From contig SAIW01000006.1 of NCBI GenBank assembly GCA_004028795.1, positions 613,541 through 677,540 of the forward strand: DNA of 64,000 bases. The letters run 5' to 3'. The stretch is from Chitinophagaceae bacterium (GTDB lineage Bacteria; Bacteroidota; Bacteroidia; Chitinophagales; Chitinophagaceae). Both the position numbers and the translations under genes were made by a program. Below, one piece after another: positions 3,719 through 55,451 of this stretch (the first letter of the stretch is position 1; every line of letters begins with the position of its first letter). The notes under the pieces were generated by a model. It saw only the letters and a program-made list of their open reading frames with translations. It was not told the origin of the DNA and ran no database searches.

Positions 3719-3726
3719 TGGTTGTA

Positions 3727-4410
3727 CTAATTTTCACCCGGAGGGCAATTGGTCGGACATAGGTCGCCATGATTAAGTGCCCCATCCTGAAATTTTTTTA
3801 AAAGTAATGCCTCTTTTTTTGACCCATCTAGTAATGATAGAAAATATTTGTTTACGACAGTAAAATCATTTTCTCGAATACCTTTTTGATTAATTTTTGT
3901 TGGAACAAAAAACAGAGTTGCTTGTTGATCATATTTTTGATGAATGGTAGTATTATGCATTGTTGTGTTATAAGCTCCGAAATAGATATTGACACCGTTC
4001 AATCCGAATTTTGGGTCTTGTAACAAGTCAGATAAATATTTAATAACATCTTTATCAAACCATACTAATGTTGATAACTTACCATTTAATCTCGGGTCTG
4101 TAGATCCATTCTCTGTATTAATATTTGGTGCATTATCATCTGCATCAATTGGAGTATGAGTTGAAATTCCAGCAATTGGTATAACTTGTCCTGAGTTGTT
4201 GTATAATGCAGGATGTCGGTGAAATCTATCGAAATTATGCCTCATTTCAAAAGCCTCTTTTTTGGTTATGAATGCATTTCCAGCTCCATAAAGTGTTGCT
4301 AATTTTTCTGGGTCTAATTTTTCTTTGCTTTTTAGCTTAACAATTATAATTGCTTGAGCAATCGCTAATCCTACAAAAACAATGAGTGCAAAAACTAAAA
4401 ATTTTGTCAT
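3727..4410 (-). CDS. Secreted hypothetical protein
   Basis: Signal peptide MTKFLVFALIVFVGLAIAQA; no recognisable motif. Confidence 0.5.
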   Translation of the reverse strand: MTKFLVFALIVFVGLAIAQAIIIVKLKSKEKLDPEKLATLYGAGNAFITKKEAFEMRHNFDRFHRHPALYNNSGQVIPIAGISTHTPIDADDNAPNINTENGSTDPRLNGKLSTLVWFDKDVIKYLSDLLQDPKFGLNGVNIYFGAYNTTMHNTTIHQKYDQQATLFFVPTKINQKGIRENDFTVVNKYFLSLLDGSKKEALLLKKFQDGALNHGDLCPTNCPPGEN

Positions 4411-4639
4411 AAAACAGTTTTTAAAGGTTTAAAATAATTTAATTAAATACAATATTGCAATAATTATTAACAATTACAAATGTGTTAACCACTATTTAAT
4501 ACGGGGTTAAAACACGGTACCAAAAACGGGTAAGGCACACATTTAAATTTCTTCAACTACTTTCTACGTTTACACTGCAAACCAAAACCCGTAAGCCGAA
4601 AAGGGTATTATAGAGTAGGCAGAAAATGAAAAAATAATT

Positions 4640-5653
4640 ATGAAGAAGCATTTCTTTATTCTGTTAATAATCTTATATTTTACTAAAATCAATGCACAAA
4701 ATTTAATTCCTTCAAAAAATTTTTCGGCACAAAAAAATTTTTCACCAGAAAAAATTTATAAAGAATTTACATCAGGTGAACAAGAATCTTCCCCTAAGGA
4801 AACAGATGATTTTGAAACACTAGTTAAATATTATAATCGAAATAAAAAAGATGATTTGCATAAAACTGAGTGTGAAAACGCATTAAAATTTATTAAAAAT
4901 AAACTTATGGATAGTTCAAGAAAACAAAGCCCTTTTAAATTATTAGGAAATGCAGGAGCAGGAAATATAACAGCGGATAATTTACAAAAAACTATTGGTA
5001 GTATGTCAATTGGTTGCCAAGTTAGAATAGGCCCTTATTATTTGTCGGAAAGTGAGAGCTATGTAAATTCTTGGTATATATATGCATTATGGAATACCAA
5101 AATTGGCACATCTTCAGATAGCTCCATATTACAAAAAAATGTTTTGTTCCCTGAAATCGGGAAGAGAGATTTTGTCATAGGGCTACTTTTTAATAAAACA
5201 AACTTGAAATTTGAATGGAATGCTGTTCCATTTATAGAGATTGCACTGAATAGTTATATTGATACAAGTGCTTCAGCAAAAAAAAATAATACAAACTATA
5301 GTTTTAAAACTATCAGCTTTTTAGCAGGCGAAAAGTTTATTAAAAATTTTTCATTAACAGCATTAGATAAGAGGGTTAATGGAAGTTTTACAATACAGCC
5401 TTACTATCAAATAATTTCCATAGACCCCAAATACTCCCTTGGCTATACAACTCTTACTAAAGAAAGTAATGCTTACCCTACAATACATAGTTTAGGTGTA
5501 AATACTATATTGGAATTAGGAAATTTAGCCATTTTTTGTAACACTAAATATATTCTCAATAAAAGTTCTGATGACCCTAAAAGCGATAAGTATATAGCGA
5601 GTAGCGACTTTAAAAGGTTGGTTTATTCTATCGGCACTTTAATAAGTTTATAA
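4640..5653 (+). CDS. Secreted hypothetical protein (possible outer-membrane beta-barrel)
   Basis: Signal peptide MKKHFFILLIILYFTKINAQ; alternating amphipathic stretches; no catalytic motif. Confidence 0.5.
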   Translation: MKKHFFILLIILYFTKINAQNLIPSKNFSAQKNFSPEKIYKEFTSGEQESSPKETDDFETLVKYYNRNKKDDLHKTECENALKFIKNKLMDSSRKQSPFKLLGNAGAGNITADNLQKTIGSMSIGCQVRIGPYYLSESESYVNSWYIYALWNTKIGTSSDSSILQKNVLFPEIGKRDFVIGLLFNKTNLKFEWNAVPFIEIALNSYIDTSASAKKNNTNYSFKTISFLAGEKFIKNFSLTALDKRVNGSFTIQPYYQIISIDPKYSLGYTTLTKESNAYPTIHSLGVNTILELGNLAIFCNTKYILNKSSDDPKSDKYIASSDFKRLVYSIGTLISL

Positions 5654-5699
5654 AAATAATTTCTTAAAGCTTTTTGATAAATTTTAAATAAAACAAACA

Positions 5700-6002
5700 A
5701 TGCAAAAAATTGAAATCGGTAATCAGGTAATTGTTTATGGTACAGAACCCATGCAAATACCAACAGCAGCACATGTAAGGCAACTAACCATTACTATACC
5801 ATTCTTATTTAAAGAAAAGCCTACCGTTAATGCAACAATTTCAGGTGATGGCCCCGGTGGCGGTTTTGTCATTTGGAATATTATCATCGCACCAACAGGC
5901 ACCAGTACTATTATTAAATTCAGTGCTAATAATATTGTTATCGGTCAACCGGATAAGGCTAATTACGAGTGTGCTTATACTGTAATTGGTCAAAAAAAAT
6001 GA
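5700..6002 (+). CDS. Small hypothetical protein
   Basis: 100-aa ORF followed by a clean terminator hairpin. Confidence 0.4.
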   Translation: MQKIEIGNQVIVYGTEPMQIPTAAHVRQLTITIPFLFKEKPTVNATISGDGPGGGFVIWNIIIAPTGTSTIIKFSANNIVIGQPDKANYECAYTVIGQKK

Positions 6003-6080
6003 TAAGAGATATATTCTACAGTAATCACAGCTTACTAACTCATTAAATATAACTTGTCATCTTCCTATAGTATGTATTAA

Positions 6081-6105
6081 AGAGAGCTTTCCAGCTCTCT
6101 TTTTT
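6081..6105 (+). terminator. Rho-independent terminator
   Basis: Perfect 8-bp stem AGAGAGCT/AGCTCTCT, 4-nt loop, then TTTTT. Confidence 0.7.
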
Positions 6106-6162
6106 GTTCAAAACAATTGCCCCAACTTCTCAAAGCCATCCCCTACATTTGCTCCAATTTAA

Positions 6163-7434
<1,272 letters not shown>

Positions 7435-7474
7435 TTGATGCAGTTATTTGATGCTATGAATTACAGCAGTATAA

Positions 7475-7488
7475 GTGTGCGACGCAAC
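7475..7488 (+). repeat. Copy a of dispersed intergenic repeat (core GTGTGCGACGCAAC)
   Basis: Exact 14-mer core; extended match TAAGTGTGCGACGCAAC. Overlaps the hairpin GCAACAA...TTGTTGC. Confidence 0.8.
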
Positions 7489-7606
7489 AAATGATGCACA
7501 AAGTTGTTGCAGTTTGTAACAAAAAAATTAAGAAAAAAAGTTGTACTTTTTTTTGGTTACTATTTATTTGCATTGAAATTTTACAGTATTAAAACTTATT
7601 GGAAAT

Positions 7607-8038
7607 ATGGCAACCTCTGATAAGGGTAAGAAACCTTCACCCAAGAAAACAACAGACGAAGAAGTAGAAAAAAAACCATCTACCAAAAGCAAAAAGCAAT
7701 TGGATGATGACGATAATGATTTAGAAGATGATGATGACGATGTAAAGCCAGCTAAAAAAGGGGCTAAGGCTGCATCAAAGAAAACGAAGGATGATGATGA
7801 CGACGATGATGATGACGTAGAAGAGGAAGATGATGATTGGAATAAAGCCGATGAAGATGATAGCTGGGACCCTGATTTTGATGAGTTTGATGTGCCTAAA
7901 TCTAAAGGTAAAAAAACTGCGGGCGGTGCAAAGAAAAAAGGTGAGGATGACGATGACTTTAAGTTGGATGAAGACTTTAAAGAGTTTGATATGTTTGATG
8001 ATAAAGATGAATTTGGTGATGATGACGATGATTTTTAA
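7607..8038 (+). CDS. Highly acidic low-complexity protein (Lys-rich N-terminus, poly-Asp/Glu body)
   Basis: 143-aa ORF, K-rich first 40 aa, then runs such as DDDDDDDDDVEEEDDD. The antisense ORFs are hydrophobic artefacts of the GAT repeats. Confidence 0.5.
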   Translation: MATSDKGKKPSPKKTTDEEVEKKPSTKSKKQLDDDDNDLEDDDDDVKPAKKGAKAASKKTKDDDDDDDDDVEEEDDDWNKADEDDSWDPDFDEFDVPKSKGKKTAGGAKKKGEDDDDFKLDEDFKEFDMFDDKDEFGDDDDDF

Positions 8039-8053
8039 ATTATCATCTTTTGT

Positions 8054-9328
8054 GTGAATAGAAACATAAAGACATTTACAGTAATTGATTTTAATAAATT
8101 TAAAATGCAAATGTTGGGCTGGGCAAACCGGTTCAACATTTGTGCTTTTTTAGATAACCATCAATACAGTTCCACTTATCATACTGTTGAATGTTTGTTG
8201 GCTGTTGATGCTGTACAAGGTTTTCATCATACATCTTCGCTGAAAGATTTTTTACAAAATGAAAATGATTGGTTATTCGGCAGTATTGGTTACGATTTAA
8301 AAAATGAAATTCATAACCTTAGTTCCACTCATTTTGATGGTATTGATTTTCCTGATTTATTTTTCTTTCAACCTGAAACTGTTATTGAGTTAACTGATAA
8401 TGAAGTTATCATAAGCTGTATAACTGTTGAACCTGAAAAAGTTTTTGAAAGTATTTCCGGTTTTGCAACTCACAACCCACAGCTCACAACTCACGGCTCA
8501 ATTCATTTACAGCAAAGGATTTCAAAAGAAGAATATATTGAAACAGTTGAGCAGATTCGCCAACACATTTTACGAGGCGATTGTTATGAGTTGAATTATT
8601 GTATGGAGTTTTTTGCTGAAGATGTTAGCTTGGATACAATAACTATCTATGAAAAATTAGTAAGCCTCTCCCCTGTTCCTTTTGCTGCTTATTATAAATT
8701 GAATGATAAATTTTTATTATGTGCCAGTCCTGAAAGATATGTGCAGAAGAAAAACAACACTATTATTTCTCAACCCATAAAAGGCACCTATAAAAGAGAT
8801 TTACAGAATGCATTACATGATAAAGATTTAAAGTATCAACTGCAACAAAGTGAAAAAGATAAAACTGAGAATGTAATGGTTGTTGATTTGGTTAGAAATG
8901 ATTTGAGCAGAATTTGTACAGAAGGTTCTGTTATTGCCGATGAATTGTTTGGCGTTTATACATTTCCGCAAGTGCATCAATTAATATCAACTGTAAAAGG
9001 AGCATTAAAACCAAATATTGATTTTGTTGACGTGCTGAAAGCTACATTCCCAATGGGTTCTATGACGGGAGCACCCAAATTAAAAGTAATGCAGTTAACA
9101 GAACAATACGAAAAAAGTAAGCGGGGTTTATACAGCGGCAGTATCGGTTATATAAAACCTAATAAAGACTTTGATTGTAATGTAGTAATAAGAAGTATGC
9201 TGTACAACGAAACCAATAAATACTTATCGTTTCATGTTGGTGGCGGAATAACCTTTAATAGTAACGCAGAAGAAGAATATGAAGAGTGTTTATTAAAAGC
9301 TTCAGCAATAATGCAGGTATTGCAGTAA
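8054..9328 (+). CDS. Chorismate-binding enzyme, aminodeoxychorismate synthase component I-like
   Basis: C-terminal chorismate-binding signature PMGSMTGAPKLKVMQL...RGLYSGSIGY. Confidence 0.8.
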   Translation: MNRNIKTFTVIDFNKFKMQMLGWANRFNICAFLDNHQYSSTYHTVECLLAVDAVQGFHHTSSLKDFLQNENDWLFGSIGYDLKNEIHNLSSTHFDGIDFPDLFFFQPETVIELTDNEVIISCITVEPEKVFESISGFATHNPQLTTHGSIHLQQRISKEEYIETVEQIRQHILRGDCYELNYCMEFFAEDVSLDTITIYEKLVSLSPVPFAAYYKLNDKFLLCASPERYVQKKNNTIISQPIKGTYKRDLQNALHDKDLKYQLQQSEKDKTENVMVVDLVRNDLSRICTEGSVIADELFGVYTFPQVHQLISTVKGALKPNIDFVDVLKATFPMGSMTGAPKLKVMQLTEQYEKSKRGLYSGSIGYIKPNKDFDCNVVIRSMLYNETNKYLSFHVGGGITFNSNAEEEYEECLLKASAIMQVLQ

Positions 9329-10342
9329 CTAACGGTTTGTAGTATTTCCTTCTAATAAAGTTTTTACACTAAGTAAGAGAATATCATTTTTTCTTCCTTC
9401 AAAAATAAACATACGCTCCTTGGGTAAGCGAAGCAGGTACTTATTACCTTCTGCCAATTTTTTATCAAACGCAGGGTTTAGTTTATTAAACTCACTGATA
9501 TCCATTACTAAATAATTAGCAACAACAACACTTAAATACCTGCCGCTAATTTCTTTTATTGCTGTATTGGCAATAGTTGCTTCATCTAAACCAACTTCAG
9601 TTTTTTGGGCTGCCAGGTATTGTTTGGTTTCTTCGGCAGTCATAGTTGTTAAACCACCGTCTCCTTCAAAAACATAATGTGTAGCGATAAATTTTTTTAC
9701 ATGTGTTCTCGTTTCTTCGGGCAATAAAAACTGCAACTTCCAGAAATCCCTGCTGCCACTTTTAGCAATCGCATTTTTAACCCTGCCTGCACCGCCGTTA
9801 TAAGCAGCAACTACTAATAACCAATCACCAAATTGTTCGTATAGTTCTTTCAACAATTTGGCAGCTACATGGGTGCTTTTATAATAATCCATTCTTTCAT
9901 CGCCATAACCATGTACATGCAAACCAAATCGTTTTCCTTCATAATCCATTAATTGCCACGGACCAACAGCACCCGCCCAGGAAACTAAACCGCTTTGCAA
10001 ATGGCTTTCAATCACACTTAAATATTTCATTTCTTTCGGCACACCATATTGTTGCAAAACAATATCATACATATCAAAATACGGTTTGCCCCATGTCTTC
10101 ATCCGTTCTAATTCTTTACCCTGTTTACGTTTATATTCCTGCACAAAAGAAACAGCCATCGGGTGTAAGGGTACATTACTTACTTTACCCGTGACCATAT
10201 TTTTTTCAACCAATAAACTTTTAAAAACAGATTTATCATCTAAGGTATCAGATGCAATATCTGTTCGCTGTGCCTGTAAAACAGAACACAACAAAACTGT
10301 AATAAGAAGAAGAAGTGTTTTATTATTGAAAAAACAGCACAT
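9329..10342 (-). CDS. Lytic murein transglycosylase (SLT domain) with C-terminal LysM-like segment
   Basis: Signal peptide; SLT motifs VIESHLQSGLVS...GPWQLM and AAYNGGAGRV. Confidence 0.8.
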   Translation of the reverse strand: MCCFFNNKTLLLLITVLLCSVLQAQRTDIASDTLDDKSVFKSLLVEKNMVTGKVSNVPLHPMAVSFVQEYKRKQGKELERMKTWGKPYFDMYDIVLQQYGVPKEMKYLSVIESHLQSGLVSWAGAVGPWQLMDYEGKRFGLHVHGYGDERMDYYKSTHVAAKLLKELYEQFGDWLLVVAAYNGGAGRVKNAIAKSGSRDFWKLQFLLPEETRTHVKKFIATHYVFEGDGGLTTMTAEETKQYLAAQKTEVGLDEATIANTAIKEISGRYLSVVVANYLVMDISEFNKLNPAFDKKLAEGNKYLLRLPKERMFIFEGRKNDILLLSVKTLLEGNTTNR

Positions 10343-11775
10343 TATTGTAACTCCATCATTCTTTTTGAAAGAGAGAGCAAATTTAGTTCATTGAAGTGAG
10401 CGGTCATTACCTGCAACCCGAAAGGCATGCCATTGCTGTGTTTGAAGAGCGGGATTGATATTCCCGGAATACCGACAAGGTTGGCAAAAACAGTATAAAT
10501 ATCTGCCAGGAACATTTCAACAGGGTCGCTGCCTGCACTGCCAATCGGGAATGCTGTTGACGGAACTGTTGGAGCAATAACAGCATCGAAGTGTTTAAAA
10601 ACTTCATTTGTTTTATTGTACAAAATTTTTCTTACCTGTTGTGCTTTGGTGAAATAAGCATCGTAATAACCGGCACTTAAAACGAAGGTGCCGAGCATGA
10701 TTCTGCGTTGTACTTCTTTACCAAAACCTTTACTGCGTGTTTGCTTATATAAATCAGTTAAATCGTTAGTTGATGTTTCTGAACGATAACCGTATTTAAT
10801 ACCATCAAAGCGGGAAAGGTTGCTGCTTGCTTCTGCTGTAGTTAAAACATAATAAGCGGGAACAATATATTTCAACAAATCAAAATCTACTGCTTCTACT
10901 TCATGCCCGTCATTTTTTAATTGCTGAATATATAGTTGAATGGAGGTTTTTATTTCACTATCCAAAGCATCATGCTCTAACATTTCTTTAAAATAAGCAA
11001 GCTTATATTTTTTATTAGCTGATGAATGTAAGTTTGAATAGGCTTCAACAGGTAATGTAGAAACTGTACTGTCAAACTCATCTTTACCTGCAATAACTTC
11101 CAATACCAATGCAGCATCTTCTACATTATTTGCAAAAATGCCTATCTGATCAAACGATGAAGCATAGGCAATTAATCCATAACGTGAAATTCTTCCGTAA
11201 GTAGGTTTTAAGCCTACCACACCACAAAAATCTGCAGGCTGCCTAACACTTCCACCCGTATCACTTCCTAAACTAATCATACACAAACCGGCCTGCACAG
11301 CTACAGCACTACCGCCTGAAGAACCGCCGGGTACAAGGTTTTCATTCAATGCATTTTTTACAGCACCAAATGCAGAGTTTTCATTGCTGCTGCCCATTGC
11401 AAATTCATCGCAGTTATTTCTGCCAATGATAATGGCATCTTCCTGTAAGAACTTTTCAATGGCTGTAGCATTATATACAGCCGTATAATTTTTTAAAATC
11501 TTAGATGCTGCAGTAACCTTATGGCCTTTATAACACAACACATCTTTAATAGCCACTATTACACCATGCAGTTTACCCAATGGCTTTCCTTGTTTTCGTT
11601 TTTCATCTAATGCCAATGCTTGCTGCAAAGCATCTTCTTCAAACACTTCTAAATAAGCATTGAGGTGTTGATTCTGTTTAATGGCAGTTAAATACGCATT
11701 TACTGCAACAGTACATCCATCAGCATTGAATGCAAGAAATTGATGATAATCTTTTATAGAAGTGAATGAAAACAA
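10342..11775 (-). CDS. gatA: Glu-tRNA(Gln)/Asp-tRNA(Asn) amidotransferase subunit A
   Basis: Amidase signature GGSSGGSAVAVQAGLCMISLGSDTGGSVRQPA. Confidence 0.9.
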   Translation of the reverse strand: MFSFTSIKDYHQFLAFNADGCTVAVNAYLTAIKQNQHLNAYLEVFEEDALQQALALDEKRKQGKPLGKLHGVIVAIKDVLCYKGHKVTAASKILKNYTAVYNATAIEKFLQEDAIIIGRNNCDEFAMGSSNENSAFGAVKNALNENLVPGGSSGGSAVAVQAGLCMISLGSDTGGSVRQPADFCGVVGLKPTYGRISRYGLIAYASSFDQIGIFANNVEDAALVLEVIAGKDEFDSTVSTLPVEAYSNLHSSANKKYKLAYFKEMLEHDALDSEIKTSIQLYIQQLKNDGHEVEAVDFDLLKYIVPAYYVLTTAEASSNLSRFDGIKYGYRSETSTNDLTDLYKQTRSKGFGKEVQRRIMLGTFVLSAGYYDAYFTKAQQVRKILYNKTNEVFKHFDAVIAPTVPSTAFPIGSAGSDPVEMFLADIYTVFANLVGIPGISIPLFKHSNGMPFGLQVMTAHFNELNLLSLSKRMMELQ

Positions 11776-13051: not shown

Positions 13052-13402
13052 TTAGAATCTTTTTTCTTTAATTCTTGCACTTTTACCGCTTCTTTCACGT
13101 AAGTAAAACAATTTAGCACGGCGTACTTTACCGGATTTGTTTAATACAATTGAATCAATATTTGGTGAAAAGAAAGGAAATAAACGTTCAACACCAACCC
13201 CATCAGAAATTTTACGAACTGTAAAGCTGGCTGTAGCACCGTTTCCCTGTAATTTAAGCACATCTCCGCGGAAACTTTGAATACGCTCTTTACCACCTTC
13301 TACAATTTTATAATTGACAGTGATATTGTCACCGCTTTTAAACTTCGGGAATTCTTTTTTTGCAGTCAATTGCTCGTGTACAAATTTTACGGCTGCGTTC
13401 AT
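13052..13402 (-). CDS. rplS: 50S ribosomal protein L19
   Basis: Full-length L19 (FKSGDNITVNYKIVEGGKERIQSFRG...). Confidence 0.95.
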   Translation of the reverse strand: MNAAVKFVHEQLTAKKEFPKFKSGDNITVNYKIVEGGKERIQSFRGDVLKLQGNGATASFTVRKISDGVGVERLFPFFSPNIDSIVLNKSGKVRRAKLFYLRERSGKSARIKEKRF

Positions 13403-13573
13403 AACTTACATTTTTTAGGACGGCAAAAGTAGGGGAAAGTTTTTAGTTATTCAGCAATAACAGCATTTTTTTTAGAAATTTATAATTCCTGTGCTTTAAT
13501 TAACCTGATATCGCTCAAACATAAAAACTCAATTGTATTAACTTTAGCCCACACTAATTAAATTAAATGCTCT

Positions 13574-28895: not shown

Positions 28896-30359
28896 TTACT
28901 CACCAACTATTTCATTACGTTTTCTGTTATATTGTTTAGAGCTGTCACCACACATCTTCACAATCTTTGGTGTAAACTTTCCCACAATATCAACCAATGA
29001 AGTTTGGCTCTGCATAACAGCATTAATGTCTTTATATGCAAAAGGAGCTTCATCTAAACCACCGCCTAATAATTTCACTCCATGTTTATTCAATTCATCG
29101 TGCAATGCTTTATGGGTAATATTATTTAATGCTTGTGTTCTGCTCATCTTTCTTCCTGCACCATGACTTGCAGAATTTACAGATGCAGCTTCACCTTTAC
29201 CTTTTACAATAAAACCATCTGCAGTCATGCTTCCCGGAATAATACCCAATACATTTTTACCTGCAGGTGTAGCACCTTTTCTGTGTACAATTACTTCTTC
29301 ACCATTACATCCTTCGACTCCGCTCAGGACTTCTTTCCAGGCAAAATTGTGATGGTTTTCTACCATCTTTATTGGCTTTCTTCCTAATTGTTTTGCAATT
29401 TTTGCATGAATAATATGGTGACAGGCACTTGCATAATCGCCGGCTAAATTCATTGCTAACCAATATTCTTGTCCTTCAGTTTCATTCAAATCTAACCACG
29501 CTAAATTTTTTGCTTCCTGTGGTAATCTTCTTTTATTGATAGCAATTTTGGTATAATGATTCGCAATGTTGGCACCCAATGCCCTGCTTCCTGAGTGGCT
29601 TAATAAACCAACATATAAGCCTGGTTCAATTCCTAACACTTCATCTTTTTCGGTAATGGTTACAGCACCAAATTCAACAAAGTGATTACCACTGCCACTT
29701 GTACCCAATTGCTTCCAGGCTCTGCTTTGTAACCCTTGCAATAAAGGTATTTCGAAGAATAAAGGGTTATCCATTACTGCATGATCTGCTGCCTGTTTAA
29801 ACATGGCACCGCTGCCAAACAAAGTAGCTTCATTAATTTCTCTTGCAAAAAATTGTTCTCTGTTAGTTAATTCTTTTGCATCAATATCAAATACACTTAA
29901 ACACATTCTGCAACCAATATCTACACCAACGCCATAAGGTATTACAGCATTCTTTGTTGCCAATACACCACCTATCGGTAAGCCATAACCATGATGTGCA
30001 TCGGGCATTAAAGCACCGGCTACACTAACAGGTAACTTAGCTGCGGTGTTCATTTGATGAAATGCACCTTGCTCAATATGCTCTGCACCAAAAGTGTTGA
30101 ATGGAATGCCTGTATCTTTCAAAGAAATCTCAGGTTCATTTACATCTTCTTTTGGTAATAATTTTTCTGCTATCATTCCTAATATTGCATCATGCTTATA
30201 TTCTATGGGAGATGCCAATACCGCTTTAAAAATTTCCATTACTTCCTCCTTTGTATTGTGTTTATAATGCTTCTCTGCAACACTCATTGTTACAGGTATA
30301 ACAGGGCTTTCAGGAAAACCAATTGCCCTTAATTCTTTTGCTGTTATTTTTTGTTTCAT
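28896..30359 (-). CDS. rtcB: RNA-splicing ligase RtcB
   Basis: RtcB active-site motifs (GNHF, HGAGR), 487 aa. Confidence 0.9.
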   Translation of the reverse strand: MKQKITAKELRAIGFPESPVIPVTMSVAEKHYKHNTKEEVMEIFKAVLASPIEYKHDAILGMIAEKLLPKEDVNEPEISLKDTGIPFNTFGAEHIEQGAFHQMNTAAKLPVSVAGALMPDAHHGYGLPIGGVLATKNAVIPYGVGVDIGCRMCLSVFDIDAKELTNREQFFAREINEATLFGSGAMFKQAADHAVMDNPLFFEIPLLQGLQSRAWKQLGTSGSGNHFVEFGAVTITEKDEVLGIEPGLYVGLLSHSGSRALGANIANHYTKIAINKRRLPQEAKNLAWLDLNETEGQEYWLAMNLAGDYASACHHIIHAKIAKQLGRKPIKMVENHHNFAWKEVLSGVEGCNGEEVIVHRKGATPAGKNVLGIIPGSMTADGFIVKGKGEAASVNSASHGAGRKMSRTQALNNITHKALHDELNKHGVKLLGGGLDEAPFAYKDINAVMQSQTSLVDIVGKFTPKIVKMCGDSSKQYNRKRNEIVGE

Positions 30360-30374
30360 TTTTTTAATTTTTTA

Positions 30375-30460
30375 CCCAATAGGCACAAAGGTTTTCACTA
30401 AGTACACCATACTTTGTGCACCTTGTGTTGCTTAACCTTGTGAACTTTGTGGTTTTATTT
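30375..30460. promoter_or_regulatory. CACAAAG/CTTTGTG array element, copy A, 5' of rtcB
   Basis: AGGCACAAAGGTTTTCAC...ACTTTGTGCACCTTGTG...CCTTGTGAACTTTGTGG; about 75 percent identical to the element at 44225-44300. Confidence 0.6.
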
Positions 30461-30495: not shown

Positions 30496-30509
30496 GTTGC
30501 GTCGCACAC
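30496..30509 (-). repeat. Copy b of dispersed intergenic repeat (minus orientation)
   Basis: Plus strand reads GTTGCGTCGCACAC; extended match about 30 nt. Confidence 0.8.
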
Positions 30510-30534
30510 TTGTACTGTTGTACACTAATGATAA

Positions 30535-41499: not shown

Positions 41500-42216
41500 T
41501 TATAAGTTTACTGTATAAGGCATTTCGCTATAAGTATTACCGGCAAGGCTTCTGCCGGTTTTCTTTTTATTTACACCGCCCCATTGTTTAAAGAAAAAAG
41601 CAACTTCTTGTTCAATACATTGTTGTTTGATATCCCATACCCAAATTTCATTCATAGGTCTCGCTTTTCTACCGCTTTCACCACCTACAATAACCCAATC
41701 AATATTTGAAAGATTAAGATTGTACAAAGGGCCAATCAATGGCTCACAAGAAAGAAACTTAACCTTAGCATTTGTTTCTCTTAAAAAATCAATCCTGTCA
41801 ATTACACGTTCATCTTCTACAGAAACACCCATCCAGATATTATTAGTCCAGTTAAGTTTATGATGCAACTCATATAATCTATCTGCTCTTTTAGTTAATA
41901 CCTGATAAGTATGTTGCGGTGTTTTATTCATTACATCAAATACTTTTTGAATAAACTCAACGGGAATATCTTTATGAAACAAATCGCTCATAGAATTTAC
42001 AAATACAACTTTAGAGTGTTTCCACGAAAAAGGAATTTGTAAAGCATCTTCATGTATTCTTAATTCAAAACCGTCTTTGTATTTATCAATACCCATTGCC
42101 TGCAACCTTCTTGCCATTACTTCTGCATAACAATGCTTACAGCCTGCTGAAATTTTATTACAACCTGTTGTAGGGTTCCAAGTCATTTCTGTCCACTCGA
42201 TTGATGATTGTGCCAT
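41500..42216 (-). CDS. Three-Cys-motif protein of the phage Gp37/Gp68 (DUF5131) family
   Basis: N-terminus MAQSSIEWTEMTWNPTTGCNKISAGCKHCYA shows the family-defining IEWT...TWNP...GC..GCxxCYA pattern. Confidence 0.75.
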   Translation of the reverse strand: MAQSSIEWTEMTWNPTTGCNKISAGCKHCYAEVMARRLQAMGIDKYKDGFELRIHEDALQIPFSWKHSKVVFVNSMSDLFHKDIPVEFIQKVFDVMNKTPQHTYQVLTKRADRLYELHHKLNWTNNIWMGVSVEDERVIDRIDFLRETNAKVKFLSCEPLIGPLYNLNLSNIDWVIVGGESGRKARPMNEIWVWDIKQQCIEQEVAFFFKQWGGVNKKKTGRSLAGNTYSEMPYTVNL

Positions 42217-42218
42217 AA

Positions 42219-43052
42219 TTAATCTTTATACTTTTTTATAACATCATTAGCAATTTTAAATGCCGCAGAATTGTTTGAAGCCATCATGAAATGATACATA
42301 ATAGAACCAGTAGAGTTTTTAAGTTCTAATGGATTCGAAACGAACTTAAAAACTTCATTAAGTTTTTTCTTATACAATTCTCCTGCTTTTTGAATAGCAT
42401 TTTGCTCTTTGTTGACAAATGTTTCCTCCCCAAATAATGTTTGAACAGTTGTGGATTTATAAAAATAGGCTTTAATTTCATCAGCTGTCATTCCTAATAC
42501 TTCTTCAAGTTTATTCAACCAAGCCTCGCTTATTTCTCCATTTCGTTTTAGTAATCGATTAATCCCAATTCCGGTAGGAACTAAAATCCATAAATCAATG
42601 CCAAGATCTTTTAAAGACATTATTGATGACCATTTGACTGACATACCATAAGGATCAATAAAAGCTAATGTTCTAACCAAAGGATTCGCCTTTAGATAAT
42701 CAGCCATTTTAATCATCCGATTGTTGCAATCATCGCAAACGACATGAGTCTTCTTTTCTGGAGCAATTTGTTTAATTGAGGCTTCTAACTGTAACTTATT
42801 AGCTTCATCTAATTCAACAAAATAATAAATGTCAAATGATTTTGGGTCATTAATTTCTATAATTCTAATAGCTGCACCTTTTATAATATCAATATCAATT
42901 AAATTGTTATTATAAATATTCCCAGAACCTGCAAACCCATCAAAGTAAAGGCACTTGAATTGATAGGATTTCATTATTGTTAAATATGCTTTAGCATAGT
43001 CATATACAATCTCAATTTTTCGTTGCGTCCAATCACCACCAAACTGATTCAT
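42219..43052 (-). CDS. TcmP-like partner protein with methyltransferase-like motif I
   Basis: Lies 3 nt upstream of the three-Cys gene; FDGFAGSG resembles SAM-binding motif I. Confidence 0.6.
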   Translation of the reverse strand: MNQFGGDWTQRKIEIVYDYAKAYLTIMKSYQFKCLYFDGFAGSGNIYNNNLIDIDIIKGAAIRIIEINDPKSFDIYYFVELDEANKLQLEASIKQIAPEKKTHVVCDDCNNRMIKMADYLKANPLVRTLAFIDPYGMSVKWSSIMSLKDLGIDLWILVPTGIGINRLLKRNGEISEAWLNKLEEVLGMTADEIKAYFYKSTTVQTLFGEETFVNKEQNAIQKAGELYKKKLNEVFKFVSNPLELKNSTGSIMYHFMMASNNSAAFKIANDVIKKYKD

Positions 43053-43102
43053 AAATAATAGAATTTATTATTAACATAACGAAATAATTCTATTTATATT
43101 AT

Positions 43103-44257
43103 TCAAAACAATCTCAAACTCTCTCCAGGTCTTCTGAATTGCGTAGTGTCTAAGTCCCAGCGTTCGGCATTTAAGCCATAGAGTTTATTATACTTTATAT
43201 ATTGCTGTCGTACCAAATCGCTTACAGGGCCTTCGCCACGCATACGTTTACCAAAGCGGCTGTCGTTCACCTGCCCGCCATGTGCAGTTTCAATTAAATG
43301 CCAAACCTTATCTGCCCTGTCGGGAAAGTTTTTATACAACCAATCATGAAACATAATTTTTATAGCACCATTCAAGCGTATAAAAGTATAGGCAGAAAAA
43401 GTAGCACCGTTTTCACTGGCCGCTTTCATTATACGTTGCATTTCATGTTCGTTTAAACCGGGAATCATAGGCCCGAGCATAACGCCCATTCTTACACCGG
43501 CTTCACTTAATTCTTTTATTGTTCGTAAACGCTGTGTAGCAGTAGTAGTGCGGGGTTCCATGGCCCTGCGTAAATCTTCATTAAAACTTGTAATACTTAC
43601 CAATATACTTACAAGTTTCTTCTTTGCCATTTCCTGCAATAAATCTTTATCACGCAACATGCCTGCATTTTTGGTAATCATGCCGACCGGTTGATTAAAC
43701 TCATTACATACTTCCAATAAACCTCTTGTTAACTTAAATTTTTTTTCTGCGGGTTGATAGCAATCTGTATTACCGCTTAAACTTATCGGCACACATTCCC
43801 ATTTTTTATTCATTAAAAATTTACGCAATAATTCAGGGGCGTTTTTCTTTACAATTATTTTTCTTTCAAAATCAAGTCCTGCACTGTAACCCCAGTATTC
43901 ATGGGCATTACGGGCATAGCAATAAATACAACCATGCTCACAACCCTGGTATGGATTCATACTGTAAAACATACCTACATCAGGGCTTTCAACCTTATTC
44001 ACAATACTCTTTGCATTGTCTTCCAAATAAACAGTAGCATCGTTTGTTTCACTCCAATCATCAATAGCTTCAATATGCTCCTTTACTTTTTGATTGGTTA
44101 AGAACCTGTTCTTGGTATTGATTTGTGCACCCCTGCCTTTTAAATAAGTATCCGCAACTTCATCAGGCTTTGGTTTGGCGTTGGGGTTATCATTAATGTT
44201 TTGCATGGGGCGTTGATTGTTGCACCACAAAGGCACAAAGGCTTTCACAAAGAACAC
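43103..44257 (-). CDS. Radical SAM enzyme, SplB/DNA-repair-photolyase-like (COG1533 type)
   Basis: CEHGCIYCY (CxxxCxxC) near the N-terminus of the core. The ORF as listed runs into the upstream element; the likely true start is the ATG at 44206. Confidence 0.75.
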   Translation of the reverse strand: MFFVKAFVPLWCNNQRPMQNINDNPNAKPKPDEVADTYLKGRGAQINTKNRFLTNQKVKEHIEAIDDWSETNDATVYLEDNAKSIVNKVESPDVGMFYSMNPYQGCEHGCIYCYARNAHEYWGYSAGLDFERKIIVKKNAPELLRKFLMNKKWECVPISLSGNTDCYQPAEKKFKLTRGLLEVCNEFNQPVGMITKNAGMLRDKDLLQEMAKKKLVSILVSITSFNEDLRRAMEPRTTTATQRLRTIKELSEAGVRMGVMLGPMIPGLNEHEMQRIMKAASENGATFSAYTFIRLNGAIKIMFHDWLYKNFPDRADKVWHLIETAHGGQVNDSRFGKRMRGEGPVSDLVRQQYIKYNKLYGLNAERWDLDTTQFRRPGESLRLF

Positions 44258-44300
44258 AAAGTAGATTTTGTGAACCTTGTGTTTTCTTTGTGTTCATTGT
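44225..44300. promoter_or_regulatory. CACAAAG/CTTTGTG array element, copy B, 5' of radical-SAM cluster
   Basis: Four forward CACAAAG units, then four CTTTGTG-type units; AGGCACAAAGGCTTTCAC shared with copy A. Confidence 0.6.
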
Positions 44301-44306
44301 GGTTAA

Positions 44307-44948
44307 TTAAGAAAAAAGTGTTTCCTGCTTAACTGTAGGAATGGATTTATTTAATAAAGAAAATTTGGCAATGTTGGTATAACCTTTTCCTTCTAATGGT
44401 CTTCTTAACAGCAATACTTCATTTACCATAAAACCTGTTTTAAAATCTGCATGTTCATATTCCAACCAACCTTTTTCGTATTGAAAGGGTAAGAGTTTGC
44501 GGGCAATAGTTATATGCGGTTCTGTTATAAAATGCCCTCTGTTCCATTTGTCTAACTTAACCAAAGGTTGCAGCGGTCTTAATGATTTTACCAAATCGAT
44601 AATATTATTTTTTGTGGCAACATTGGCATAAATAGTATGCGATGGAAAGCTGCCGAAACCATTAACCGTTATCTGAAATGCAGCCGCAGCCTGAATTAGG
44701 GGCAATAGTTTATTAATAATTTTTCTTTCCTGCATTTCTATTTGTACAAAGCGAAGCAAGGTGATATGCGGCTTGCTGGGCAATGCAGCTGGGCATTCAA
44801 ACTTTTCTGCAAATGCTTTTTTTATTGCCATTATTTTTTGCTGCACATCCTGCGACGGAGCGATAATCAATAAATAATCATGCAGATTTAATTGCTGTTT
44901 ACTGAACGATTGTGTTACTGCTTCATTATCTAAAAACGGATGCTGCAC
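44307..44948 (-). CDS. 2H phosphoesterase (LigT/ThpR-like RNA 2',3'-cyclic phosphodiesterase)
   Basis: Two H-x-T-x motifs: KPHITLLRF and EPHITIARK. Confidence 0.75.
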   Translation of the reverse strand: MQHPFLDNEAVTQSFSKQQLNLHDYLLIIAPSQDVQQKIMAIKKAFAEKFECPAALPSKPHITLLRFVQIEMQERKIINKLLPLIQAAAAFQITVNGFGSFPSHTIYANVATKNNIIDLVKSLRPLQPLVKLDKWNRGHFITEPHITIARKLLPFQYEKGWLEYEHADFKTGFMVNEVLLLRRPLEGKGYTNIAKFSLLNKSIPTVKQETLFS

Positions 44949-44956
44949 TGCTTTCT

Positions 44957-45313
44957 CTATAATAAAATTCTGTTGATTAATTTTTCTTCTCCTCCTGCAT
45001 TGGCTTTATATAAACACACAGAACTCAACTGTTCTTTTATATAATACTGATTAACGTAATTCAATACCTGTACAGCGGGGATGTTTAAGGCTGTTTGCCA
45101 TTGCTGCATCATGCTGCGTAATAAAGCATGTGTATCGCTAAGGCTTCCATCGCTTTGTACGCAAAGGTTTTGCAAGTGCCTGAACAAAGTATTTTCTGCC
45201 TGTTCTTCGGCACAAAAACCTGCTAATGCCAATGTTGTTTTTGCATTGCTGCACTCGGCTACAATTTTGTATTGTTTGTGTGTGTTGCCACAGTTTAATA
45301 AAATAGTATGCAT
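44957..45313 (-). CDS. Hypothetical protein (first gene of the LigT-like operon)
   Basis: 118-aa ORF; its stop lies 9 nt from the LigT-like start. Confidence 0.45.
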   Translation of the reverse strand: MHTILLNCGNTHKQYKIVAECSNAKTTLALAGFCAEEQAENTLFRHLQNLCVQSDGSLSDTHALLRSMMQQWQTALNIPAVQVLNYVNQYYIKEQLSSVCLYKANAGGEEKLINRILL

Positions 45314-45385
45314 AGTATAAAATTTTAAAACTAAATTTTGTAGTGTGAAAATACTAATTAATTTAGCATTATAAAATTAAATTTT

Positions 45386-45895
45386 ATGGATAGGGATAGT
45401 TTTTATAACAGTGCTTATAAAGGCACTAAATCTTTTAAACAACAGGAAGTAATTACTGCCAATGCTACAGGTTTTGGTGCTGCTGCTGATGATTTTATGG
45501 AACGCGGTATTGATTTGAACGAACAGTTAATTATGAATAAGCCTGCTACTTTTTTCTTTCGCATGAACAGTGATGCTATGGAAGGTGCATGCATACATGC
45601 CGGCGATATTTTAATAGTTGACAGAAGTATTAAAGCTGCTAATGGAAAAATTATTGTAGCCATTATTAACGGAGAGTTAATGGTACGCCGCTATGAACAT
45701 AGTTTTAATAAGGCAACGCTCTGTGCAGAGAATAAACGTTTTAAAGATATTGCTATTGAAGAGTTTTCACAGTTTCATTGTTGGGGTGTTGTTACCTGTG
45801 TGATACATATGATAGAACCGGCGTTAATGAGTTATCACAAAAAAGCATCTGCCGAGCAAGAAAAAAGTGTTGCTGAAAAGTATATACGCTGGTAA
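45386..45895 (+). CDS. umuD: UmuD-like S24 peptidase (translesion polymerase accessory subunit)
   Basis: S24 LexA/UmuD C-terminal domain (MNSDAMEGACIHAGDILIVDRS...GELMVRRY). Confidence 0.8.
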   Translation: MDRDSFYNSAYKGTKSFKQQEVITANATGFGAAADDFMERGIDLNEQLIMNKPATFFFRMNSDAMEGACIHAGDILIVDRSIKAANGKIIVAIINGELMVRRYEHSFNKATLCAENKRFKDIAIEEFSQFHCWGVVTCVIHMIEPALMSYHKKASAEQEKSVAEKYIRW

Positions 45896-45914: not shown

Positions 45915-47195
45915 ATGAAAGCCATTGTAGATTGTAACAGTTTTTATTGTTCCTGCGAAAGGCTCTTCAGACCTGAGCTGGAAGGCAAACCCGTTATTGT
46001 ATTAAGCAATAACGATGGTTGTATTATTTCACGCAGCGATGAAGCGAAAAAGTTAGGAGTTGAAATGGCCGGCCCCTATTTTAAAGCAAAGCCCATTATT
46101 GAAAAACATAACGTAACAACATTTTCATCCAATTATAATTTGTACGGAGATTTAAGCTGGCGTGTTATGGAAACTTTACGCATGATGTTCGGTAAAGAAA
46201 ATGTAGAAGTGTACAGTGTTGATGAAGCTTTTGTAAATCTTGATTTTATTCCCAAAGAAAAAATAAATGAAGTTGCTTTTAAAATAAGAGAAATCGTTGA
46301 AATGTGGACGGGCATTAAAGTTTCAGTAGGTGTGGCTCCAACAAAAGTATTGGCAAAAGCAGCCAACCGTTTGGCTAAAAAAAATAAAGAAGCTACACAA
46401 TGTGTTTTGGTTTTAGATACTAAGAAAAAAATAGAGAAAGCATTAGAAAAAACTAAGGTTGATGATGTATGGGGTATTGGCTATCAATATGCAGAAAAGT
46501 TAAACCACTTCGGCATTACCAACGCTTTACAATTAAGTATGAAGACTCCTGAGTTTGCCAAAAAACATTTAGGAGGCATAGTGGGTTTACGTTTATTAAG
46601 AGAACTACAAGGTTATGTAAGCATACAAATGGATGACGAACTGATAAACAAAAAAATGATTATGACAACACGTATGTTCGGCGAGCCTGTTAACGATTTT
46701 AAAAGTATTCGTGAAGCTGTTGCCACTTATACTTCCCGTGCAGCAGAAAAATTAAGAAGGCAAAGCGGTGCTGCTAAACACATTGGTGTTTTTATTGTTG
46801 CCAAAGAAGAAAATCATAATGTTAGTTATAAACGCGGTGCAACAATAAGCAGCTACACAACATTGCCAATGGCAACCTCATTAACACAGGAATTAATTAA
46901 ACCTGCAGTAGCCATTGCAGAACGTTTGTATGAAAAAGGAAGAAGCTATAAAAAAGCCGGTGTTATGCTAAGCCATATTGTTCCTGATACTTCTGTGCAG
47001 GGAAATTTGTTTATGAGTGATAATAAAAACAGAAGTAAGTTATTAATGGATATGATTGATAACATCAACTTCAGTCAACGCGATGATATTTTAAAATTTG
47101 CTTCCAGCGGGTTAGAACGTAACTGGAAGATGCAGCAAAATTTTCGAAGTCCGAAATATACCAGCCGTTGGGAAGAGTTATGCAAAGTAGGTTAA
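45915..47195 (+). CDS. umuC: Y-family DNA polymerase (UmuC/Pol V catalytic subunit)
   Basis: N-terminal IVDCNSFYCSCERLFRPELEGKPVIVLSNNDGC. Confidence 0.85.
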   Translation: MKAIVDCNSFYCSCERLFRPELEGKPVIVLSNNDGCIISRSDEAKKLGVEMAGPYFKAKPIIEKHNVTTFSSNYNLYGDLSWRVMETLRMMFGKENVEVYSVDEAFVNLDFIPKEKINEVAFKIREIVEMWTGIKVSVGVAPTKVLAKAANRLAKKNKEATQCVLVLDTKKKIEKALEKTKVDDVWGIGYQYAEKLNHFGITNALQLSMKTPEFAKKHLGGIVGLRLLRELQGYVSIQMDDELINKKMIMTTRMFGEPVNDFKSIREAVATYTSRAAEKLRRQSGAAKHIGVFIVAKEENHNVSYKRGATISSYTTLPMATSLTQELIKPAVAIAERLYEKGRSYKKAGVMLSHIVPDTSVQGNLFMSDNKNRSKLLMDMIDNINFSQRDDILKFASSGLERNWKMQQNFRSPKYTSRWEELCKVG

Positions 47196-48099: not shown

Positions 48100-49077
48100 T
48101 TAATCAAATAAGCTTTTCTGCTTTTTTTCTGAAGTATCAACAAACTTTGGTTTAATTAAATCAAGGTTGCATGCTTCATTCATTTTATCAACCAAGTAAA
48201 CAGTCAATTCAGGTGATGTTGCTTCATCATGCATGTGCATAAAGAAATATAATTCTTCTAAACCCTTATCCAGCCAATGTTTCATTCGTTTAATCCATTC
48301 ATCAATTCTGGTATAATCAGTTTTATGTAAACTATTACCAACATACCTTATAAATGTTTTAGGAACAGTTAAATGCATATGAGCACATTCTCTTCTGCCT
48401 GCTGTGTCTGTAATAACAATGCCTATATTATTATCTTTTAAAAAACTATACAGTTCATTAGCAAGTTCATCTTTCAAAAACCAATCGGGGTGTCTTACCT
48501 CTAAAAAGAATTGCAAATCTTTTGGTAGCGATTTTAAATATGTAAATAATTCTTCTTTTCTTTTTGGTGAAAAACTATCGCTTACCTGCACGAATATTGG
48601 GCCCAAGTTTTCTTTAAAGGCAACAACACCTCTTAAGAATTCATCACTTAAAAATTTCTTATTTCCCAAACCACCAAAATGTGTTACACCTTTATACATT
48701 TTAGGGCAAAACTTAAAATCTTTTGCTACTGCTTTTTCCTTCCATTTTTCAATGGCTTTTTCGCCATATACTTTATAATGTGTTGCATTTAATTCTATGC
48801 AGTTATAATGTTGTACATAGTGTTGTAAAAAATCTTTCTCTTTTGTTTTTAAAGGATAAATTTTGCCCACCCATTCTTCTCTTCCCCATTTAGCACAGCC
48901 AACATAAACCTTTGCGTTTTTATTCTTTTTACCGCTTAGTATTTGTTTGTTGAATGATGGTTCTTTTGGCAATGAAAAGTCTATATTATCTAATTCATTT
49001 TCCGGTACTCTTCCGAATTCCATAGCAATAACATTTAATTTTTCGAATGTAAGATGAATAAAGAACAGAACGTTCAA
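48100..49077 (-). CDS. DUF72-family protein
   Basis: YVGCAKWGREEWVGKIYP pattern. Likely start at internal Met (MEFGRVP); the listed start abuts the repeat copy. Confidence 0.6.
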   Translation of the reverse strand: MNVLFFIHLTFEKLNVIAMEFGRVPENELDNIDFSLPKEPSFNKQILSGKKNKNAKVYVGCAKWGREEWVGKIYPLKTKEKDFLQHYVQHYNCIELNATHYKVYGEKAIEKWKEKAVAKDFKFCPKMYKGVTHFGGLGNKKFLSDEFLRGVVAFKENLGPIFVQVSDSFSPKRKEELFTYLKSLPKDLQFFLEVRHPDWFLKDELANELYSFLKDNNIGIVITDTAGRRECAHMHLTVPKTFIRYVGNSLHKTDYTRIDEWIKRMKHWLDKGLEELYFFMHMHDEATSPELTVYLVDKMNEACNLDLIKPKFVDTSEKKQKSLFD

Positions 49078-49091
49078 GTGTGCGACGCAAC
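49078..49091 (+). repeat. Copy d of dispersed intergenic repeat
   Basis: TCAAGTGTGCGACGCAACCACAGTTGAAT. Confidence 0.8.
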
Positions 49092-55404: not shown

Positions 55405-55437
55405 TTTACAGTTGTTGCATAAAGCACAAAACGTACA

Positions 55438-55451
55438 AGAGTGCGACGCAA
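55438..55451 (+). repeat. Copy e of dispersed intergenic repeat (1 mismatch)
   Basis: TACAAGAGTGCGACGCAACGAAAGCTTAAT. Confidence 0.75.

Follow-up and report, generated by a model that had tools for sequence, protein, structure and literature searches.

The locus described here lies in a 64-kb stretch of Chitinophagaceae DNA (the window; all coordinates are window positions) and consists of five closely packed minus-strand open reading frames (ORFs) over positions 41500-45313, which diverge from the umuD and umuC genes. From upstream to downstream, these are orf118 (44957-45313), encoding a small, Cys-rich protein of 118 amino acids; a gene for a LigT-like 2H phosphoesterase (44307-44948); a gene for an SplB-like radical S-adenosylmethionine (SAM) enzyme of the PA0069 family, within COG1533 (43103-44209); tcmP (42219-43052; 277 amino acids); and a gene of the DUF5131 (Gp37/Gp68) family with a radical-SAM-like product (41500-42216; 238 amino acids). 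The genes umuD (45386-45895) and umuC (45915-47195) are located on the plus strand, and the 72-nt spacer between umuD and orf118 carries a predicted LexA operator, CTAATTAATTTAG (45354-45366, without strand assignment), which matches CTAA-N5-TTAG exactly and has orf118 as the first gene behind it. The transcription unit reaches from the DUF5131 gene upstream via the LigT-like gene and orf118 to the promoter divergent from umuD, and thus comprises five genes. Its last two genes, those for TcmP and DUF5131, constitute a mobile two-gene module that has been recruited repeatedly in Bacteroidota into SOS operons beside translesion polymerases. An original prediction, made from the sequence alone, had described the three minus-strand genes from the radical SAM gene to the DUF5131 gene, and all three were recognized in the ORF translations. 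Of the gaps given there, the 50 nt between the radical SAM gene and tcmP were correct, whereas the claimed 3 nt between tcmP and the DUF5131 gene measured 2 nt; the gap between orf118 and the LigT-like gene is 8 nt.

Profile searches bore out the predicted family assignments. The radical SAM protein matched NF033668, the PA0069 family, with 476.9 bits against a cut-off of 360 (E = 3.3e-143; profile positions 1-340 of 348) and PF04055 with 71.1 bits against 29.5 (1.6e-19), and its sequence CEHGCIYCY provides the CxxxCxxC motif of the radical SAM superfamily. As listed, the ORF opens with a GTG at 44257 (43103-44257). Because this GTG falls within a repeat element, and because both the NF033668 match and the alignment of homologues begin after the ATG at 44209 (MQNINDN...), the latter is most likely the start codon. 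TcmP, which carries the motif FDGFAGSG and is identical in sequence to a protein on record from a Chitinophaga sp. metagenome-assembled genome (MAG), matched TIGR04474 over positions 1-262 of 263 (E = 1.4e-40, 139.9 bits, cut-off 53), and its gene is a direct neighbour of the PF07505 gene. The DUF5131 protein covered the complete PF07505 profile (1-243 of 243) with E = 4e-100 and 334.8 bits, the gathering score being 28.9. The N-terminal motif pattern that had been noted for it is present as SIEWTEMTWNPTTGCNKISAGCKHCY and includes three cysteines in the arrangement C19-x6-C26-x2-C29.

The neighbouring genes were likewise identified by Pfam and NCBIfam matches, in agreement with the prediction that LigT-like and umuDC genes are adjacent. 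The LigT-like protein matched PF13563 (E = 4.6e-14, 53.2 against a cut-off of 27) and PF02834 (E = 1.7e-10) and contains the two H-x-T motifs of 2H phosphoesterases, in KPHITL and EPHITI. Its score against TIGR02258 was 37.6, below the cut-off of 65.7, and it is therefore not a canonical ThpR/LigT equivalog. The umuD product (Peptidase_S24/UmuD) and the umuC product (IMS/UmuC) were recognized through NF007621 (128.8 bits, cut-off 110), PF00817, PF11799, and PF13438. No Pfam or NCBIfam family matched orf118. Homologues with 55-68% identity occupy the same position in two further loci (L058 and L069) and share its invariant cysteines; the conserved features are C8, C21, C34, C51, and C100 and the segments LALAGFCAEEQ and EEKLINRI. 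In other genomes, the slot of orf118 is held by a second LigT-like gene.

To examine the conservation of this arrangement, we scanned 185,579 species genomes, which yielded 469 TcmP relatives. The best 80 of these 469 loci were analysed by ORF extraction and phmmer; all are from Bacteroidota except one bin labelled Ignavibacteriae. In four separate look-ups, TcmP relatives of 64-73% identity led to five loci in four Chitinophagaceae genomes. All five have the order LigT (one or two copies)-radical SAM-TcmP-DUF5131, and a divergent umuD-umuC pair is present in three of the four genomes, while the outer flanks are unrelated. Among the best 80 loci, every contig that permits an assessment has tcmP next to the DUF5131 gene, so that the pair recurs as predicted. 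A PA0069-type radical SAM gene lies directly upstream of the pair in 32 loci, mostly from Chitinophagaceae, with TcmP identities of 57-76%. The operon-like union of the pair with an SplB-like enzyme is hence conserved, the order radical SAM-TcmP-DUF5131 being kept in 32 of about 75 related Bacteroidota loci. Nearly all of the 32 also contain umuDC and one to three LigT-like genes. Three loci (L007, L008, and L072) have the genes redistributed round the same promoter, with umuC-LigT-LigT on one side and umuD-radical SAM-TcmP-DUF5131 on the other. In the window, a single short-chain dehydrogenase/reductase gene separates umuC from a DUF72 gene (48100-49077, minus). In L003, a DUF72 gene (3145-4065) adjoins umuC directly; DUF72 may be a further recurring neighbour of the SOS island.

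Of about 80 related loci, 46-47 have the pair but no PA0069-type gene, and in several of these it stands among genes of DNA metabolism. Locus L028, from an uncultured bacterium, comprises over positions 3080-11382 two LexA boxes followed by genes for DinB, a LigT-like protein, RecQ (with RQC, HRDC, and HTH_40 domains), TcmP, DUF5131, and a DnaE2-like polymerase III alpha subunit. All of these genes are on one strand with short gaps, and they form a putative SOS operon in which the LigT-like gene is present although the radical SAM gene is not. In L031 and L047, the order is DinB-TcmP-DUF5131-DnaE2 with gaps of 13-103 nt, and in L057, L059, and L078 the divergent neighbour is an HTH_3 plus Peptidase_S24 gene of the non-canonical LexA type. 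The other neighbours of the pair-only loci are not recurrent, and the pair thus behaves as an insertable two-gene unit.

The SOS repressor of Bacteroidota is a CI-like HTH-S24 protein, a non-canonical LexA with the experimentally supported operator CTAA-N5-TTAG, and the reported core regulon of Bacteroidetes includes umuDC and splB/COG1533 (PMC8565304). The sequence CTAATTAATTTAG is the single exact match to this operator in the window, at a distance of 20 nt from the umuD ATG and 41 nt from the orf118 ATG. The box is kept in orthologous loci: 27 of 30 radical SAM-type loci with enough upstream sequence have an exact copy at the divergent promoter, and L002/L018, which are devoid of umuDC, have two boxes directly before LigT. 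We infer that the operon and umuDC are under LexA control from one common operator. In the pair-only loci, an exact box is found 17-42 nt before the tcmP ATG in 12 of 46 cases (Mucilaginibacter, Pedobacter, other Sphingobacteriales, and some Chitinophagaceae), with about 0.04 expected at those positions from the window background, and three further loci show a box with one mismatch in the same range. The alternative LexA motif GGA-N5-TCC was absent before the pair in the loci scanned, apart from one distant match. Judged from the recurrent box and the placement in polymerase operons, the pair alone is also a predicted SOS unit in Bacteroidota.

We consider it probable that the five genes constitute an SOS-induced operon for nucleic-acid lesion processing or, more broadly, the damage response. 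A role in DNA damage is best supported because the pair is repeatedly embedded among genes for UmuDC, DinB, DnaE2, RecQ, and LexA. In its general form, the original proposal that the genes encode an uncharacterised system for the repair or modification of nucleic acids is supported.

A rather unlikely alternative is that the radical SAM gene and the TcmP-DUF5131 pair are functionally independent members of the SOS response with nothing in common but a promoter region, the trio being a regulatory neighbourhood and not a system. The many loci in which the pair lacks a PA0069-type companion, in Bacteroidota as well as outside the phylum, would fit this explanation, as would the published SOS regulons in which splB-type genes are not accompanied by the pair (PMC8565304). 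It accounts poorly, however, for the fixed order radical SAM-TcmP-DUF5131 with gaps of tens of bases, which persists over the whole identity range of the 32 loci and even where umuD, umuC, and LigT have been rearranged. Moreover, a pairing of DUF5131-like with SplB-like proteins has been catalogued as radical SAM mobile pair A/B (TIGR04471/TIGR04470). The window DUF5131 protein matched TIGR04471 with 5.7e-24 and 84.8 bits (cut-off 355), and the radical SAM protein matched TIGR04470 with 1e-25 and 90.7 bits (cut-off 410). These scores are far below the equivalog cut-offs, so that the window proteins do not belong to that pair, but the catalogued pair is an independent precedent for such a pairing.

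Beyond the Bacteroidota, the pair was encountered in mobile or variable settings. DUF5131 is a very large family, with at least 8000 scored candidates, and is represented in 178 of 50,697 phage records, including phages of Mycobacterium, Gordonia, Burkholderia, and others. In Gordonia phage Angelique, the DUF5131 gene is convergent with that of the 'methyltransferase' gp43, which is a TcmP (TIGR04474, 3.8e-36), and both genes belong to the immunity region, next to those for the repressor and integrase. A tblastn search of phages with TcmP gave no match, a failure of sensitivity, as the hidden Markov model (HMM) identifies Angelique gp43. A Sulfitobacter MAG has the pair approximately 0.8-5 kb from genes for TniB and a TnsB-like transposase of a Tn7-like element, an Acetobacter conjugative plasmid carries it, and two actinobacterial chromosomes have a convergent pair in variable contexts without recA. 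The earlier label 'phage-derived' thus holds for DUF5131 insofar as the family is found in phages, but the pair also occurs on plasmids, a Tn7-like element, and chromosomes. Some phages have DUF5131 without a recognisable TcmP neighbour. In phage Che9c (L091, 890-4059), gp68 is a longer DUF5131 protein of 386 amino acids encoded three genes downstream of a Dcm-like cytosine methyltransferase; in phage phiE125 (L092), gp37 follows an unassigned 350-amino-acid gp38 and is near a gene for an SOS-response-associated peptidase.

These contexts raise the question of anti-phage defence or abortive infection. The pair, alone or together with the second radical SAM enzyme, would modify or damage phage or host nucleic acid, or would produce an antiviral nucleotide in the manner of viperins; the module would be fired through its SOS control upon prophage induction or DNA damage from infection, and LigT would limit or reverse self-damage. 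PADLOC indeed assigned TcmP to PDC-M41A (2e-122) and DUF5131 to PDC-M41B (6.8e-130), in accordance with the HMM definition of PDC-M41, and the matches including PDC-M30B range from E = 1e-122 to 1e-130. Together with the Angelique immunity region, the Tn7-like transposition genes, the conjugative plasmids, and the 178 phage genomes, these matches favour a defence function. The PDC entries are, however, untested candidates, and a literature search revealed no experimental report of phage protection by PDC-M41. In Bacteroidota, the pair shares its operons with translesion polymerases, RecQ, and DnaE2 and is not located in defence islands, and the flanks of the five Chitinophagaceae loci are free of defence genes except for a PIN/DUF433 pair in one of them. 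Mobile carriage combined with SOS control is equally typical of damage-tolerance genes, for example, the plasmid-borne homologues of umuDC. We therefore regard defence as an unlikely main function.

The AlphaFold (AF2) model of TcmP has a predicted local distance difference test (pLDDT) score of 95.4 and a class I SAM-dependent methyltransferase fold. Foldseek returned many methyltransferases with a probability of 1.00, the best being DUF519/RlmJ (template modelling (TM) score of ~0.5), Trm1, EgtD, and RsmD. In 82 family sequences, no variation was seen at D38 and G42 of motif I (FDGFAGSG) or at D133; P134, G136, and E80 are nearly invariant, the latter following strand 2 and being conserved in an alignment of 22 sequences; and G44 of motif I is also conserved. 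The segment D133-P134-Y-G follows strand 4, at the place where amino-methyltransferases have (D/N)PP(Y/F). With its fold, motif I, the acidic residue after strand 2, and the motif after strand 4, the modelled TcmP has the features of a class I SAM methyltransferase. In DUF5131, C19, C26, and C29 are invariant in alignments of 20 and of 33 sequences. Profile-profile comparison aligned its NPxxGC-x6-CxxCYA with the NPYxGC-x3-CxxCYA of the PA0069 family (E = 8e-5, probability 61%). The best structural match of the DUF5131 model was a DNA lyase, spore photoproduct lyase (SPL), with a resemblance at the fold level only.

Starting from the observed genes, families, gene order, conserved box, and predicted folds, we envisage radical-SAM chemistry on a nucleic-acid lesion with TcmP as base-binding or methylating partner and LigT in end processing, although the specific chemistry of the operon enzymes is a guess. 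Upon DNA damage, activated RecA would cause the CI-like LexA to cleave itself and leave CTAA-N5-TTAG, whereupon umuDC and the operon would be expressed, as the motif and its conservation suggest; the motif itself has been tested by others (PMC8565304). The radical SAM enzyme (CxxxCxxC) and DUF5131 (Cx6CxxC) would each bind a [4Fe-4S] cluster and cleave SAM to a 5'-deoxyadenosyl radical. Their target, to judge by homology and fold, may be a damaged base or cross-link in nucleic acid, which would amount to a direct reversal or processing of replication-blocking lesions. For TcmP, as obligate partner of DUF5131, the probable role is to bind the nucleic acid with base flipping at the target, or else to methylate the target base. 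More speculatively, the LigT-like enzyme might trim 2',3'-cyclic or 2'-phosphate ends that arise from processing or at ribonucleotides in damaged nucleic acid. A more specific version, which we propose only tentatively and hold to be less than even, is that TcmP-DUF5131 is a two-component direct-reversal repair system: an SPL-like lyase guided by a base-flipping partner with a methyltransferase fold, spread by phages, plasmids, and transposons, recruited to the SOS response, and joined in Chitinophagaceae by the PA0069 enzyme and LigT-type end healing. If so, it would represent the first radical-SAM DNA repair chemistry beyond SPL and give a function to two large families.

Several observations weigh against an SOS-induced lesion-processing operon. 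The single box of the window is a motif match, and 1.96 such matches are expected per window by chance; the argument therefore rests on the position of the box and its conservation. No box was recognisable in about 29 of the 46 pair-only loci. Outside Bacteroidota, the pair is found in mobile or variable contexts (the Tn7-like element, the plasmid, the prophage immunity region, and the actinobacterial chromosomes) without SOS neighbours, and PADLOC lists it under the defence candidates PDC-M41 and PDC-M30. The role of TcmP is a guess because spore photoproduct lyase needs no methyltransferase partner. LigT, the nearby rtcB gene, and the RlmJ-like fold hint at RNA rather than DNA as the substrate. 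The DUF5131 model is of moderate quality (pLDDT of 74), and Foldseek found no significant match to it in the PDB. Finally, none of the PA0069, DUF5131, and TcmP families includes an enzyme with a known substrate or is related to a solved structure in a way that is detectable by sequence.

The operon had originally been placed behind a CACAAAG element that it was thought to share with rtcB (28896-30359; PF01139, E = 2.4e-81). The bare heptamer is not enriched in the window (15 copies, 12.2 expected). Dense CACAA/TTGTG clusters, by contrast, occur exactly twice, at 44226-44297 before the radical SAM gene and at 30384-30447 before rtcB, compared with 0.42 per shuffled window, and this part of the claim stands. 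The former cluster belongs to an imperfect CACAAAG/CTTTGTG hairpin repeat (44224-44303, minus) between the LigT stop codon and the radical SAM start, and the latter to a CACAA(A)G/CTTTGTG element (30384-30451, minus) directly upstream of rtcB. The repeat is accordingly situated inside the operon and not in front of it, and the conserved control element is the LexA box at the umuD/orf118 promoter. The first cluster forms a four-segment imperfect hairpin with a minimum free energy of -31.7 kcal/mol (z = -4.9; none of 200 shuffles was as stable), while the second folds more weakly (z = -2.3). An intrinsic terminator is ruled out by the absence of a T-run, and no Rfam family matched the repeat.

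Arrays of CTT(T/C/A)GTG are found in orthologous LigT-radical SAM spacers of other genomes. A GxxExxY gene (TIGR04256) has been inserted into this spacer in four loci (L019, 5353-5766; L037; L038, 5265-5591; and L049), flanked by CACAAAG/CACAGAG ... CTTTGTG/CTCTGTG arrays, and in L061 a similar heptamer hairpin separates an acyltransferase-like gene from a permease gene. Since it flanks GxxExxY genes and occurs between unrelated genes, we read the element as a dispersed hairpin of the repetitive extragenic palindromic (REP) or miniature inverted-repeat transposable element (MITE) type and not as an operator; the bracketed GxxExxY genes suggest that it is the carrier or remnant of a small mobile element. 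As most rtcB upstream regions also lack it, a common CACAAAG operator of rtcB and the operon was rejected as the principal explanation. In Ferruginibacter sp. (L012), heptamer arrays with the unit TTCGTG as opposed to TTTGTG precede both the radical SAM gene and rtcB (5308-5358 and 13346-13502). The same dispersed repeat may be drawn to these spacers, or else the arrays may be a co-evolving cis-element that links rtcB with the radical-SAM operon.

The rtcB connection bears on a last and quite improbable explanation, a modification system in which TcmP methylates an rRNA, tRNA, or DNA base and DUF5131 and the radical SAM enzyme add a radical-SAM modification as RlmN, Cfr, and MiaB do, re-tuning translation or marking DNA during the SOS response, with LigT and RtcB in the same RNA-centred response. 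The RNA methyltransferases RlmJ, Trm1, and RsmD as nearest structural relatives of TcmP, the LigT-like genes as the most constant companions of the pair, the proximity of rtcB in several genomes (at no more than 5-7 kb, and in L011 immediately behind the DUF5131 gene), the same repeat type before rtcB and the radical SAM gene in the window and in Ferruginibacter, and the Dcm-like methyltransferase gene three genes upstream of the Che9c DUF5131 gene all speak for it, but it is outweighed by the DNA enzymes UmuDC, DinB, DnaE2, and RecQ as operon partners, by the DNA lyase as best structural match of DUF5131, by the inconsistency of rtcB proximity across genomes, and by the dispersed nature of the repeat.

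Further sequence features were observed in the window. The 18-nt motif TGCGTCGCACNCTTGTAC is present in five copies (7469-7486, minus; 30498-30515, plus; 31349-31366, minus; 49072-49089, minus; and 55433-55450, minus), with 0.03 expected. Four copies are intergenic, and the one at 49072-49089 borders on the DUF72 ORF at its listed start; two copies bracket a 260-amino-acid gene upstream of rtcB. The motif recurs in L001/L012, L002/L018, L022, L024, L030, L032, L038, and L061, several times in LigT-radical SAM spacers. Its 9-nt core GCGTCGCAC is invariant in nine aligned copies, including those of four other Chitinophagaceae genomes, and the longer form GCGTCGCACNCTTGTAC was found in 10 of the fetched loci. 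The centre TGCG-T-CGCA is a 9-bp palindrome, and the orientation relative to the flanking genes varies. The Rfam tRNA model matched twice at 32833-32961 (minus), with 33.7 and 29.1 bits; ARAGORN called neither of these tRNA-like elements. Overlapping them is a partial match to the Y-RNA-like family YrlA, whose 36 bits fall short of the gathering score (69). The elements are located inside the rtcB cluster, which comprises an AAA ATPase, an RNaseH_like protein (PF04308), Band_7, the 260-amino-acid ORF, and RtcB, and recalls the rsr-yrlBA-rtcBA arrangement of Salmonella. A DUF805b RNA motif of Rfam is found at 4586-4621 (plus; 42 bits, gathering score 35.6).

Parts of this picture are known already: the families and the pair have been catalogued, and the SOS control of splB-like genes has been published. 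Rv2578c of M. tuberculosis, from the PA0069-related family, has a LexA site in chromatin immunoprecipitation and is induced in a RecA-dependent manner (PMC3381160). Proteins of the PA0069/Rv2578c family recur among SOS genes, from Bacteroidota to M. tuberculosis. The same organism has a mitomycin-C-induced cluster Rv2734-Rv2735c-recX-recA (PMC5057432), and the GenBank record of phiE125 notes a similarity of gp37 to Rv2734. This link rests on the GenBank note and one transcriptome paper (PMC5057432); a homologue search starting from an actinophage TcmP gave no M. tuberculosis protein, and Rv2734/Rv2735c is a candidate DUF5131/TcmP pair. In the literature that could be searched, no paper was found to connect PF07505, TcmP, or LigT with the SOS regulon, and the supplements of the Bacteroidetes SOS paper (PMC8565304) make no mention of COG4422, PF07505, or LigT. 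Neither a consistent LexA-box control of TcmP-DUF5131, nor its insertion into translesion-polymerase operons, nor a PA0069 gene fixed between LigT and TcmP-DUF5131, as in the LigT-radical SAM-TcmP-DUF5131 string of Chitinophagaceae, was found described. The repeated position of the pair under a LexA box and in umuDC, dinB, and dnaE2 operons turns a 'defence candidate' into a concrete DNA-damage-response hypothesis. If true, bacteria would have a new enzymatic pathway in their SOS response, and the carriage of these genes by phages and plasmids would be explained.

Comparison with known systems places the operon enzymes as follows. Both RlmJ, the 23S rRNA m6A2030 methyltransferase (DUF519), and TcmP have the class I fold with motif I and, behind strand 4, an acidic-Pro motif. 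There is, however, no detectable sequence relation (no Pfam match), and TcmP has DPYG instead of DPPY as well as an extra beta-hairpin and C-terminal elements. SPL (SplB) resembles the radical SAM proteins of the operon in its radical-SAM partial TIM barrel and its DNA-damage context; the PA0069 family is in the same COG1533 group, and RadicalSAM.org unites SPL, DUF5131, and MJ0683-like proteins in Megacluster-5 (PMC9477430). Yet no SPL model was among the NCBIfam matches of the radical SAM or DUF5131 protein, and no SPL chain in the PDB was found by sequence with either of them. DUF5131 has Cx6CxxC where SPL has CxxxCxxC, with about 9% identity in the structural alignment, and is paired with the methyltransferase-like TcmP, whereas SPL has no such partner; moreover, the window organism does not form spores. 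Radical SAM mobile pair A/B likewise combines DUF5131-like and SplB-like proteins on mobile DNA, but in the window the tcmP gene lies between the two.

The closer parallels are those of gene organization. As a member of the PA0069/Rv2578c family, the 'splB' of SOS regulons, the window radical SAM enzyme belongs to a group that is LexA-regulated in Bacteroidetes, Verrucomicrobia, and M. tuberculosis; it differs in that its gene is fixed between LigT and TcmP-DUF5131. Both tcmP and the DUF5131 gene are members of the catalogued TcmP/three-Cys (PF07505) pair, PDC-M41 and PDC-M30, and are adjacent as the definition of the pair requires. What has been catalogued as a pair or defence candidate is in Bacteroidota located under a LexA box and inside translesion-polymerase operons. 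The umuDC and imuB/dinB-dnaE2 mutagenesis cassettes, finally, differ from the window trio, which consists of accessory enzymes and not of polymerases, but share with it a common operator and promoter region, and in L028, L031, and L047 the pair stands between dinB and dnaE2 themselves.

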